Positions 22,460 to 30,173 of a stretch of 61,365 nt of DNA are shown here, piece by piece. Position 1 is the stretch's first letter; each line of letters opens with the position of its first letter. Below the pieces are notes generated by a model, which was given only the letters and a program-made list of their open reading frames with translations, was not told where the DNA came from and ran no database searches. Location: the sequence record OQ992557.1; one strand, given 5' to 3'. The position numbers were made by a program, and so were the translations under genes. The stretch is from Pseudomonas phage Chuck.

Positions 22460-22655
22460 CTTGTAACTCCTTCGTCAGTTCCCGGAGCCGGAGTGTCTGC
22501 TGGCGGTACAAGTACCCAAAACACCCGTGCTCCCCGTTCATCATATCTGTATGGACCTTGCGGAGGTGCGCAGCGAGTTCTTCCACCGTGTCGAAGGCGT
22601 AGAACTTCAGCTGCGGGTCCTCCGCCCAATCACGTCGCAGCTTCTCCAAGTCCAT
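22428..22655 (-). CDS. hypothetical protein (75 aa)
   Basis: Compact ORF in the operon. Confidence 0.4.
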   Translation of the reverse strand: MDLEKLRRDWAEDPQLKFYAFDTVEELAAHLRKVHTDMMNGEHGCFGYLYRQQTLRLRELTKELQDERERKASGR

Positions 22656-23265
22656 CGCGCACCACCTCCTCGAAGAAGTCCGAGAGACGGCGATGCGGCT
22701 GGTGCTTCGCTGCCACGTAGAAGGCGCGGACGGGTTCGGGCAGGCTACCCTCCAGGCCCCGCTTCTCCGTCACCGCCTCGCATGCCCTCCGCATGGCCGT
22801 GACCGCTTCGTTGCCCAGGGCTTCTTCCTCCCGGCACCACAGCCACAGTTCGAGGGTGTCCACGGCCTTCAACCAGTCCTCCTCGTCAGGGAGAAGGCCC
22901 GGGAGCAGGCCCAGGGTCGCCAGCACGCGGCGTTCCGCCTCCTCATACACCTTCCCGAGTTCGGAGTGGGTCCACTTCGCCGGGGCCGGGATGTCGCCCA
23001 ACCAACGCTCCGCGCAGTCGTGCCACTGGACCGCCTTGATCAGGTTCAGCGACGGGTGCGGGTGGAGCAGCAGCAGGAGGCTCACGGCCCCGTAGCTGTG
23101 CTGGGCGATGTTGTACTGACCGTGGTGCGGGACGATGTGGCACCGGCGGACCGTCCCGGCCTCCCGGGTCGCGGCGATCCGGGTCAGGAGCGGGCGGGCG
23201 GCGCGGCGGTTCAGCTCCTCCGCCTCGCGCTCCTCGTCATGAATCTTGCTCATCAGGCTTCCCAT
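22630..23265 (-). CDS. HD-domain phosphohydrolase (YfbR-like 5'-deoxynucleotidase; candidate dTMP/dNMP phosphatase)
   Basis: H...HD...D motif: AQHSYGAVSLLLLLHP...AVQWHDCAERWLGD. Confidence 0.6.
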   Translation of the reverse strand: MGSLMSKIHDEEREAEELNRRAARPLLTRIAATREAGTVRRCHIVPHHGQYNIAQHSYGAVSLLLLLHPHPSLNLIKAVQWHDCAERWLGDIPAPAKWTHSELGKVYEEAERRVLATLGLLPGLLPDEEDWLKAVDTLELWLWCREEEALGNEAVTAMRRACEAVTEKRGLEGSLPEPVRAFYVAAKHQPHRRLSDFFEEVVRDGLGEAAT

Positions 23266-23277
23266 TGTTGCGTCTCC

Positions 23278-24423
23278 TCACTCATATGCCACGCCATCGT
23301 CCATCGCCCGGGCCTTGCGGGCCTCGAAGGCGGCGCGGCGGCGTTCGATCCATTCCACCCCGGCCAGCTTCCAGTCGGTGGCGGCGACGTTGTCCAGCTC
23401 CGCCAAGGCGGCGTCAAAGCGGGAGGGGTTGGAGGTCTGCTTGAAAGCCTTGTGGGCCTTCAGCATCGGGATCGCCACGCGACGGAAGAACGGGTCACGG
23501 AAGCCCACGGCGTCCGGCTCGCTCAGGAACATCATCAGCTCCTGGTTCCACTCCTCCGGGTCCGTGGACATCAGCGGGTACGGCTCCGCGATCCCGGCGG
23601 CGTAGGGGTCGGGCGTCTCCTTCCCGGTCATCGGGTTGGCGGCGAGGTCCGCGAGCGGGGCGACCTTGTCCAGCACCTCCTCATAGGCGTGGAAGTTGGC
23701 GCTGACTTGGCGGTAGATGCCTTGTTCAACCCCGACACTCCGGGCGACGTACTCATGGAGGTAGCTGAAATGGACCGCGTTGGCCCCGTAGGCTCCCCAG
23801 ATCAGGTCGTTGGAGCGGTTGGTCACGGTCATGTCCAGGCGACCGTCGCAGGCGATCTGGAAGATGGCCTGAAGGTTGCAGGGGAGGTCCTTGCCTTGGC
23901 GGCCCAGGTCCGCGTCCGCGTCCCACATCGACAGAACCTGGCGGCGGTCATCGCGGTTCGCCTTCAGGGCGGCGATGATCTTGGGCAGCTGGTCCTCGAA
24001 GAAGTGCTGGCGCCAGCGGAAGCCGTAGGCCCCGTGGAATGTCAGGCCGTCATCCGAGTAGCTGTGCATGCGATCCACGAAGCGGGCGACGTACTCCACG
24101 TCATTGCGTCCGCCCAGCATCCAGAGGCTTTCCATCAGGTGGAAGAAGGGGTTGGCGTCCCGTTCCACCCAGAACAGCACGCGCTCCGCCGGGCGGAGGT
24201 ACACGGTGGTGACGGGTTCCGGGAACATGAACACGGGGCCGTTGCGCGAGTCGCGGCGGACGCCCTCGAAGGACAGTTGATACAGGGCCTCCGGGAGGGC
24301 CTGTTGTACGTTGCGGGTCTTGATGACTTTCATTTCTTGTTGAACTCCACGAAGATGACGTTGCCGGTCCGGCGAAGGACGCGGGGGCGAGGGAGCCAGA
24401 CCAACCACCAGCTCCAGTACCAC
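23278..24423 (-). CDS. thymidylate synthase (ThyA) family enzyme with diverged active site and about 100-aa C-terminal extension; predicted dUMP hydroxymethyltransferase or divergent TS
   Basis: Alignable to E. coli ThyA across the fold (ESLWML vs ELLWFL, RRQVLSMWD vs RRIIVSAWN). The catalytic PCH is PCN, QRSCD is NRSND, and GLPFNIASY is GAYGANAVHFSY. Confidence 0.75.
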   Translation of the reverse strand: MVLELVVGLAPSPPRPSPDRQRHLRGVQQEMKVIKTRNVQQALPEALYQLSFEGVRRDSRNGPVFMFPEPVTTVYLRPAERVLFWVERDANPFFHLMESLWMLGGRNDVEYVARFVDRMHSYSDDGLTFHGAYGFRWRQHFFEDQLPKIIAALKANRDDRRQVLSMWDADADLGRQGKDLPCNLQAIFQIACDGRLDMTVTNRSNDLIWGAYGANAVHFSYLHEYVARSVGVEQGIYRQVSANFHAYEEVLDKVAPLADLAANPMTGKETPDPYAAGIAEPYPLMSTDPEEWNQELMMFLSEPDAVGFRDPFFRRVAIPMLKAHKAFKQTSNPSRFDAALAELDNVAATDWKLAGVEWIERRRAAFEARKARAMDDGVAYE

Positions 24424-24455
24424 CAGAACGGCGAGAAGATCATGGCCCCCTCCTG

Positions 24456-28186: not shown

Positions 28187-29023
28187 TCACTCCCCGATGT
28201 TCCAGAACACGATGGGGCGTGGATGGACGGAAGCCAGGTTGAGCGGGTCACTCAGCCACTTCCAAGCCTTCAGATCATAGAACGGGTTGCAGGGGAACGG
28301 GGCGGAGGCGTCCCGGGCCGCGTCCGCGTACCCGTAGCCCTCGTCAATGAACTTGATCCGGTCGCCCAGGGTCAGTCCCGCGGCCTTCTCGATGTACTCC
28401 CGGGTGGCGTCCTGGCTCCGCGAGTAACCCATGTGAAGGATGACGTTGTAGCTGCGGAGCAGGCCCGCCTCCTCGAAGCCCTTGAGCACCCCGGCGGCGA
28501 CCGTCCCCGAGCTGATACTGATGACCAGGGTCCCGGAGTCCGGGAGGTGCGGGGCGGTGCGGACGGCCTCCGCGGCGTTCTCCGTGATCGACTCCGGGAG
28601 CTTCAGGGCGTTCGGCATCAGGTAGCTGTCGTGGTAGTTCTCCCGCAGGTGCTTCTTGGCCGTATGGTACAGGATCGCGGAGCGGCCCGCCGGGATGTCC
28701 ACGAGGTCCGCCCCGAGCTGGCGAGCGTGCTGCTGTTGGACGCGCGGGGCGTCCGCGGCCCCGTCGCGCTTGAAGCGGGGCCAGTAGTCCACGGCCTGTT
28801 TCCCGAGCTGCTGGCAGACGTAGGCAACCGCCCAGCCCGCCTTCGAGTGGTACGTGTCCAAACAGCCGATGGTGGTCTCAGGCCGGTTCTTGATATGGGC
28901 GACAACTCCGCGAATCTTGCTGAAGGACGGACCCGGGAGCGGGGCGCACAGGTCCTCCCGCTTCACGAGGATCGGGACCCCGTTGAGCTCATAGGTTTCG
29001 ACCGGGGTGTTGTTGACGATCAT
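28187..29023 (-). CDS. PLP-dependent enzyme, fold type II (ACC deaminase / D-cysteine desulfhydrase / TrpB superfamily)
   Basis: ATG 29023 with AGGAG RBS. VKREDLCAPLPGPSFSKIRG matches the family's vKRdDL...gNKlRk PLP-lysine region. Confidence 0.6.
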   Translation of the reverse strand: MIVNNTPVETYELNGVPILVKREDLCAPLPGPSFSKIRGVVAHIKNRPETTIGCLDTYHSKAGWAVAYVCQQLGKQAVDYWPRFKRDGAADAPRVQQQHARQLGADLVDIPAGRSAILYHTAKKHLRENYHDSYLMPNALKLPESITENAAEAVRTAPHLPDSGTLVISISSGTVAAGVLKGFEEAGLLRSYNVILHMGYSRSQDATREYIEKAAGLTLGDRIKFIDEGYGYADAARDASAPFPCNPFYDLKAWKWLSDPLNLASVHPRPIVFWNIGE

Positions 29024-29024
29024 C

Positions 29025-29900
29025 TCACTGCTCCTTGGGCATGTGGTTGAGGAAGGCCCGCGCGGCGGAGCAGCGGCCCGCCCACGGTTCGAGCCCGCCG
29101 TTGATTTCCCGGATGTCATTCCAGAGCGGGTAGTGGCCATTCATGTGGGACTTCCATTTACACAGGACCGTCTCCACTTCCTGGATGTTCACGGGGCGGT
29201 CGCCCAGGGGCGGAGCGGCGAGGTCAGCGAACCGCCCAATCAGGTAGTCTGCGACCCCGGACAGGATCGCCTCGCGCTTGGGCTTCGCGTTCTCCGGGTA
29301 CTTGTGAGCCTCGCGCTGCTCCCACAGCATCATCGCGGCCTTCTCCGGGTCCTTGAACATGAACACGGCGGCGTTGTCGAAGTCCACCGGGACCTCCATC
29401 ACCCGGTCCATCATGTCCGCGATCTTGAAGCCGATCCACGGACCGAAGCCGTTGTGCTCCTGGGCGCGGGCGGAGACGGTGCGGAAGGGCAGGCGCTCAT
29501 CCTCCGTCGCCCGGGCTCCCACGTACAGGGCCATGTTCTCCGGGCGGTCGCCGTAGCGGGCCTGGAGGGAGGTCACGGAGTCCACTGCGATCTTGGCCCT
29601 GTAGTGGCGGCGCTCATGCCCACGAGGCCAGCGACCCCCGGCGGGCGTCTCCTCCTCGTTGCGGGCCGCGACCATCATCCAGTGCCAGAACTCCTCGCCC
29701 TCCTTCTCACTCAGGAAGGAGGCGACCCCGGCGTGGTAGTAGCACCAATAACCAAGGAGCCAGCGGCAGAGCTGCGGCACGGAGAAGTCCCCCGCCTGCT
29801 CCGCCCGAACCAGGGCCGTGTAGATGGGGTCCAGATCGCCGGTGGTGATCAGGTGTCGGCCAAACGTCTCGATGTCCAGCCGCGGGTAGTTTCTGCTCAT
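29025..29900 (-). CDS. aGPT-pyrophosphorylase-like protein, paralog 2 (291 aa)
   Basis: Similar size and N-terminal architecture to 25072-26043 ([10 protein letters not shown]...LLGYWCYYH). Assignment is mostly by context. Confidence 0.4.
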
Positions 29901-29909
29901 AGTCTTTTC

Positions 29910-30173
29910 TCACAAGTATGCGTGACTGATTTTCCCGCTCAGGTCCTTCAGGATGTCCCAATCAGAGAATTGGCGACTGAAGGAAGGCTCCATGCGGACT
30001 TCTTTGTTGACGTGAATACGGGAATGGACCGTCAGCCACTTGCTGTCGCCGTCCTCCGTGATCACAACGTGAATCCACGGAGGTAGCTTGAAGGGCTCCA
30101 TTCTGTATCCCCGCTCCGCCGGGTACTCCACCCGGCGGAGCAGGTAGTCATAGGTGCGCTCCGAGGCTCCCAT
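29910..30173 (-). CDS. hypothetical protein (87 aa)
   Basis: Compact ORF at the head of the cluster. Confidence 0.45.
   Translation of the reverse strand: MGASERTYDYLLRRVEYPAERGYRMEPFKLPPWIHVVITEDGDSKWLTVHSRIHVNKEVRMEPSFSRQFSDWDILKDLSGKISHAYL

Follow-up and report, generated by a model that had tools for sequence, protein, structure and literature searches.

What do the co-oriented genes between the DNA polymerase and the class II ribonucleotide reductase (RNR) of Pseudomonas phage Chuck make, and does their product differ from the modified thymidines already described in phages? The window analyzed here is the whole 61,365-nucleotide stretch of record OQ992557.1, and the locus in question is the interval 22630-30173. 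A first-pass annotation of the DNA had proposed a thymidine-hypermodification cluster of the kind known from phages M6, ViI, PhiW-14, and SP10, with a final base that might not yet have been described chemically. The first proposal held, and the second is not supported. We are close to certain that the interval is the cassette of an M6-group Yuavirus for the thymidine hypermodification 5-(2-aminoethyl)-2'-deoxyuridine (5-NedU). The cluster is not new; it is already known and biochemically characterized in M6. The main value of the present work is therefore correct annotation, together with the expectation of 5-NedU in the DNA of this phage, which is relevant to restriction mapping, sequencing chemistry, and phage therapy against Pseudomonas aeruginosa.

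By Pfam families and motifs, all seven gene types named in the annotation lie inside the interval in one orientation, on the minus strand: a ThyA-family protein, a P-loop kinase, two transferase-like proteins, a radical S-adenosylmethionine (SAM) protein, a pyridoxal 5'-phosphate (PLP) enzyme, and an HD hydrolase. The flanking polymerase and RNR genes are where it had placed them (Table 1).

The relationship to M6 carries this reading. Over 22000-31500, the DNA is 98.4% identical to Pseudomonas phage M6 with 100% of the query covered, and 99.3% identical to Pseudomonas phage PaSz-4. The same segment matches 78 phage records, query coverage is 80% or more in 51 of them, and 49 reach at least 95% identity. 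The M6 proteins gp46 to gp62 (17 of 17) can be placed on the window in M6 order, at full length, without gaps, and at 96.8-100% identity; the range for gp51-gp54, the core of the pathway, is 96.8-99.5%. The cassette has neither gained nor lost genes compared with M6. Elsewhere, the window aligns colinearly with phi_M6, a re-sequenced genome, at about 97.9% identity over blocks of 46.9 kb and 3.1 kb; the 11.4 kb between these blocks falls outside the compared part of the phi_M6 record. Because of the cluster identity, the mapping of gp46-gp62, and the phi_M6 colinearity, the window is, as judged by its sequence, an essentially complete and circularly permuted Yuavirus genome that belongs to the M6 group (family Mesyanzhinovviridae). 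A few mosaic spots distinguish it from PaSz-4, its closest relative in the cluster: 44829-46007 (about 1.2 kb) is 77% identical, and 3762-3989 and 4449-5057 have no counterpart. Apart from these spots, identity to PaSz-4 across the genome is 95-98%.

The chemistry of the M6 system is well documented. In the virion DNA of M6, a fifth nucleoside, with a mass of 271 Da, takes the place of about 30% of T (Lee et al. 2018 PNAS, PMC5889632). That study named gp51-gp55 as candidate genes and found the tightest clustering in M6-like phages, beside the dUMP hydroxymethylase and polymerase genes (PMC5889632). The pathway was later reconstituted in vitro (Lee et al. 2021 NAR, PMC8989533). Nucleoside analysis by liquid chromatography-mass spectrometry (PMC5889632) and restriction digests (PMC6449724), which the first-pass annotation had suggested as checks, have thus already been done on M6 DNA. 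It withstood 48.4% of the more than 200 type II enzymes tried, a TG or TC (TS) context being common to the resistant sites (Flodman et al. 2019, PMC6449724). Genome announcements for the relatives SN1 and Lydia already annotate the cassette likewise.

From 5-hydroxymethyl-2'-deoxyuridine in DNA to 5-NedU

The steps that follow replication have been shown biochemically for M6 proteins 97-99.5% identical to those encoded in the window. The annotation had proposed searches of the kinase and the two transferase-like proteins of about 300 residues against profile hidden Markov models; all three match, to PF18748, PF18723, and PF18724.

Modification starts from 5-hydroxymethyl-2'-deoxyuridine (5-hmdU) in DNA. 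In M6, gp54 is the 5-hmdU DNA kinase (PMC8989533, Table 1). Its homolog in the window, correctly picked out beforehand as a 187-residue Walker A kinase, carries the motif GCNGSGKT and is 99.5% identical to gp54, with D158E as the sole change. Against the deoxynucleoside monophosphate (dNMP) and thymidylate kinase families, it scores below those families' cut-offs. By analogy with gp54, it is a DNA kinase that would convert 5-hmdU in DNA to the monophosphate 5-phosphomethyl-2'-deoxyuridine (5-PmdU).

Together, gp54 and gp51 of M6 proved necessary and sufficient for the conversion of 5-hmdU DNA to a 315-u nucleoside, Nalpha-glycinylthymidine (Nalpha-GlyT) (PMC8989533). The reaction passes through the monophosphate 5-PmdU, with free glycine as the donor; gp51 requires both a conserved Cys and a neighboring Glu, and trapping with borohydride and mercaptoethanol points to an exocyclic methylene intermediate (PMC8989533). 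Displacement of a pyrophosphate by an amine donor, as the first-pass annotation had it, is an older model, replaced for M6 by this Cys-dependent transfer to the monophosphate. The clade-2 protein of the window differs from gp51 by E35Q and S233G, and both E243 and C247 are present. In the Protein Data Bank (PDB), it matches 25qc_A, a crystal structure of a protein about 97% identical to it (E=1e-200), and PaMx11 gp46 (8z2m, E=1.5e-91). Cys247 is the catalytic nucleophile of PaMx11 gp46, for which structures 8z2m and 8z2n are available (PMC11472151). By analogy, then, the clade-2 protein is a glycine:DNA transferase acting on 5-PmdU: Cys247 would attack C6, the phosphate would leave as an exocyclic methylene forms, and the alpha-amine of free glycine would be added to this methylene to give Nalpha-GlyT.

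The third enzyme would rearrange this adduct. Anaerobically reconstituted gp53 holds about 9 Fe per protein, requires SAM and a reductant, and turns Nalpha-GlyT into an isomer of equal mass assigned as Calpha-glycinylthymidine (Calpha-GlyT) (PMC8989533). The radical SAM protein of the window has the expected CxxxCxxC motif (C125-x3-C129-x2-C132, within CTVGCAFC at residues 125-132) and a C-terminal Cys group (421/426/429/439). Its three differences from gp53 (E64D, T330M, and D412G) leave both cysteine groups in place, and its gene lies between the transferase and kinase genes, in the same position as that for gp53. By the same analogy, it is a glycinyl-thymine isomerase, which would move the link from N to C-alpha and yield Calpha-GlyT with a freed primary amine.

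The last step falls to the PLP enzyme. Purified gp52 acts on the isomer made by gp53 and not on Nalpha-GlyT, and its product is identical to native 5-NedU (PMC8989533). The window's homolog keeps the Schiff-base lysine, K36, and is by analogy a decarboxylase that would convert Calpha-GlyT to 5-NedU. DNA modified in this manner would resist many restriction endonucleases. Key residues are thus kept throughout the pathway (Walker A, CxxxCxxC, K36, and E243/C247), and the Pfam assignments agree with these roles. PDB sequence searches with the kinase, the radical SAM enzyme, the PLP enzyme, and the gp55 homolog returned no matches.

Two related systems place the cassette among known modifications. 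The PaMx11 cluster (gp46-gp49) for 5-acetylaminomethyl-2'-deoxyuridine (5-AcNmdU) shares its first two DNA-level steps, the 5-hmdU DNA kinase and the glycine:DNA transferase that gives Nalpha-GlyT (PMC8989533). From there the two diverge: PaMx11 has a flavin adenine dinucleotide (FAD)-dependent Nalpha-GlyT lyase and an acetyltransferase, whereas a Pfam scan of the cluster's open reading frames (ORFs) found no FAD or acetyltransferase family, and the radical SAM and PALP proteins occupy that position. The end products would therefore differ, 5-AcNmdU in PaMx11 and 5-NedU here. Salmonella phage ViI makes 5-(2-aminoethoxy)methyl-2'-deoxyuridine (5-NeOmdU) with gp67, gp247, and gp226, again with a kinase, a clade-2 transferase, and a PLP decarboxylase working on 5-hmdU DNA. 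In ViI, however, the donor is serine linked through oxygen, so that a radical SAM isomerase is not needed, and the genes are dispersed, unlike the clustered genes of the window.

The end product and its alternatives

The closest known system is the M6 5-NedU cluster itself (gp50-gp59), which has the same gene content, order, orientation, and catalytic residues. The window differs from it by point substitutions only, together with a patch of substitutions that spans 11 residues at the C-terminal end of the PLP enzyme.

Several points weigh against the assignment of 5-NedU. The presence of this base in the Chuck isolate is expected from comparison with M6 sequences rather than from the chemistry of its own DNA. 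The Pfam match of the radical SAM protein, taken alone, is below the gathering threshold. The hydroxymethylase, HD hydrolase, and deaminase steps are predicted from homology and from the scheme of SPO1-type phages. Finally, the PLP enzyme shows 9 differences from gp52, and the patch (residues 259-269; 28217-28249, minus strand) holds 8 of these. At the DNA level, the patch consists of substitutions without indels, and it is identical in AN14 (Pseudomonas virus M6 in GenBank). On this comparison, we take the patch to be a natural allele, one that has the look of a short recombined segment. A compensated frameshift behind the six consecutive substitutions was considered and rejected because the DNA alignment shows substitutions alone.

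This patch is also an argument for the idea that a cluster of known kind could yield a chemically undescribed thymidine derivative through its radical SAM and PLP enzymes, an idea that gains further room from the gp55, gp56, and gp50 homologs, which have no assigned function. We consider such an outcome very unlikely. The two enzymes are 99.4% and 96.8% identical to gp53 and gp52, whose joint product was demonstrated to be the same as native 5-NedU; neither K36 nor any of the Fe-S cysteines has changed; the species commonly carries the patch allele, AN14 being one example; and the gene complement is that of M6. The suggestion of a new base in the first-pass annotation is not supported because the pair on which it was built is the published isomerase and decarboxylase pair (PMC5889632, PMC8989533).

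Less likely still is a cassette that is partly inactive in this isolate, so that the DNA would hold an intermediate, for example 5-hmdU or Nalpha-GlyT. Each enzyme does carry a few amino-acid changes relative to M6, but these are small in number, conservative for the most part, and also present in other viable isolates; no catalytic residue is lost, and the reading frames are all intact, full length, and free of indels. There is equally little to recommend a set of ordinary nucleotide-pool enzymes (thymidylate synthase, dNMP kinase, nucleotidase) with unrelated neighbors and unmodified DNA, for which GenBank names such as "thymidylate synthase," "thymidylate kinase," "threonine dehydratase," "DNA repair photolyase," and "terminase small subunit" might speak: the kinase scores above the cut-off of the 5-hmdU DNA kinase family and below those of the dNMP and thymidylate kinase families, the ThyA homolog fails every ThyA equivalog cut-off, and the reading is refuted for M6, where the orthologs act on DNA in vitro and the DNA contains 5-NedU. 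The 5-NedU cassette is thus the reading that we carry forward, and the window raises no new question about the pathway itself.

Predicted supply of 5-hmdU before replication

How 5-hmdU would come to be in the DNA is suggested by the pre-replicative scheme of SPO1-type phages, summarized in PMC8989533. In this scheme, the dCMP deaminase probably supplies dUMP, and the ThyA-like hydroxymethylase would convert it to 5-hmdUMP. The HD hydrolase may help to drain the thymidine nucleotide pool, and the phage polymerase, which presumably incorporates 5-hmdUTP, would put 5-hmdU into DNA. The functional module reaches beyond 22630-30173, since the deaminase gene sits past the polymerase.

The ThyA homolog had been described as a variant with an altered catalytic site. 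Its nucleophile is in fact unchanged: the protein keeps the catalytic Cys (LPCN), the RS.D and F/T-H-x-Y motifs, and an Asn equivalent to N177 of ThyA. These equivalences rest on local motifs (PC[HN], RS.D, and N at the N177 position) because MAFFT put the catalytic Cys one column off in the alignment with the Escherichia coli ThyA comparison sequence. The protein misses all NCBIfam ThyA equivalog cut-offs, the best score being 80.7 bits against 174.55 for TIGR03283 and the other models falling far short of theirs, and its closest PDB relative is the CMP hydroxymethylase MilA (5b6d, E=3.4e-17). The description that suits it best is that of a divergent pyrimidine hydroxymethylase, with dUMP as the predicted substrate and 5-hmdUMP as the predicted product. 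Streptomyces MilA and the dUMP hydroxymethylase of SPO1-type Bacillus phages have the ThyA fold and the catalytic Cys in common with it. At the aligned position, MilA has Asp, whereas the window protein has Asn, like ThyA; the Asn would fit a uracil substrate (dUMP, in the window protein) and the Asp a cytosine substrate (in MilA).

For the HD protein, NCBIfam gives a weak 5'-deoxynucleotidase match and the PHROG collection a dATP triphosphohydrolase (E=7e-7); we infer that it is a nucleotidase that depletes dTMP or dTTP. No dedicated dNMP kinase for 5-hmdUMP was identified in or beside the cluster. The DUF3310 protein, whose gene adjoins that of the polymerase, matches PHROG "nucleotide kinase" families, but the match is confined to a DUF3310-like stretch of those profiles. 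The 168-residue protein at 30967-31473 is named uracil-DNA glycosylase in AN14, yet it has no match in NCBIfam; the phage would replicate by way of dUMP and 5-hmdU. The ORF at 12787-13398, called a "putative pyrophosphatase" in PaSz-4, was considered as a member of the pathway and set aside: it has no match in Pfam, and its PHROG is of unknown function.

The clade-1 protein and the gene inventory

The two proteins of about 300 residues had been read as paralogs. Both are present, but any relationship between them would be one of fold. At E up to 10, the Pfam scan gave no cross-match between them. PF18723, the family of the gp55 homolog, is the former aGPT-Pplase clade 1, now called "HMUDK_hel," and PF18724 is the former clade 2. 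The clade-1 protein has a helix-hairpin-helix glycosylase-like fold, and its best structural match is the transferase. An E-x3-C motif is invariant across an alignment of 19 homologs, each of which shares at least 72% identity with the protein. Its gene comes next downstream of the kinase gene, after a gap of 11 nucleotides, and SP10 gp186 is a kinase-Pplase fusion that matches this gene order (PMC5889632 Table 3). In M6, gp55 is dispensable for the formation of Nalpha-GlyT in lysate reconstitution (PMC8989533). Because of the transferase-like structural match, the invariant E-x3-C, and the position after the kinase gene, it is plausible, though less likely than not, that the protein has a second role at the DNA level, either in partnership with the kinase, bearing on its specificity, or in the resolution of 5-PmdU left unglycinylated. 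Nmad5 is listed within the M6-like cassette (PMC9476957). No role for Nmad5 or the clade-1 protein is mentioned in a 2026 paper on diaminopropane-thymine, nor is one discussed in the M6 pathway paper (PMC8989533). Questions about these accessory genes (the clade-1 Pplase, Nmad5, the HD hydrolase, and the DUF7300 protein) concern every M6-like phage and not this window specially.

All long, mutually compatible ORFs in 20079-33480 are on the minus strand. The annotation had counted eleven genes. By the M6 annotation, there are 10 coding sequences in 22630-30173 (gp50-gp59, including the 37-residue ORF) and 15 between the polymerase and the RNR (Table 1).

Table 1. Genes in and around the 5-NedU cassette, with positions in the window and the basis of each assignment
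Gene product	Position	Strand	Basis
dCMP deaminase (M6 gp65 annotated as putative dCMP deaminase)	19116-19577	-	PF00383, E=1.8e-16
Family A DNA polymerase (M6 gp62 homolog)	20079-22073	-	PF00476, E=8.7e-47; 99.2% identical to gp62
DUF3310 protein	22073-22459	-	E=1.9e-4, below cut-off
ORF without Pfam family	22428-22655	-	
HD / YfbR-like hydrolase (M6 gp59 homolog)	22630-23265	-	PF12917, E=4e-8; PF13023; 99.5% identical to gp59
ThyA-family protein (M6 gp58 homolog)	23278-24333	-	PF00303, E=3.8e-18; 98.3% identical to gp58
37-residue ORF (M6 gp57 homolog)	24330-24443	-	100% identical to gp57; no match in Pfam
Nmad5 protein (M6 gp56 homolog)	24456-25016	-	PF18757, E=1.3e-32; 96.8% identical to gp56
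Clade-1 aGPT-Pplase, HMUDK_hel (M6 gp55 homolog)	25072-26043	-	PF18723, E=4.8e-56
Predicted 5-hmdU DNA kinase, 187 residues (M6 gp54 homolog)	26055-26618	-	PF18748 HMUDK, 65.2 bits, cut-off 27
Radical SAM protein (M6 gp53 homolog)	26673-28115	-	Pfam Radical_SAM, E=1.7e-4, below gathering score; 99.4% identical to gp53
Fold-type-II PLP enzyme (M6 gp52 homolog)	28187-29023	-	PF00291 PALP, 39 bits, cut-off 35; 96.8% identical to gp52
Predicted glycine:DNA transferase, clade-2 aGPT-Pplase, Pfam ADDT (M6 gp51 homolog)	29025-29900	-	PF18724, E=1.3e-46; 99.3% identical to gp51
DUF7300 protein (M6 gp50 homolog)	29910-30173	-	PF23974, E=3.5e-25; 98.9% identical to gp50
DUF3489 protein	30184-30867	-	
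168-residue protein, weak uracil-DNA glycosylase (UDG)-superfamily match	30967-31473	-	Pfam E=0.0023, below cut-off
Class II RNR	31618-33480	-	NCBIfam NrdJ_Z, 518 bits, cut-off 400

The start of the PLP gene is most likely at 29023, which gives 278 residues as in M6, rather than at the upstream ATG at 29140. The PHROG matches of the 37-residue ORF and the DUF7300 protein are to families of unknown function.

Names in the GenBank records of relatives often obscure the cassette. Entries for the kinase read "terminase small subunit" or "thymidylate kinase," those for the radical SAM isomerase "DNA repair photolyase," and those for homologs of the decarboxylase "threonine dehydratase" or "ACC (1-aminocyclopropane-1-carboxylate) deaminase."

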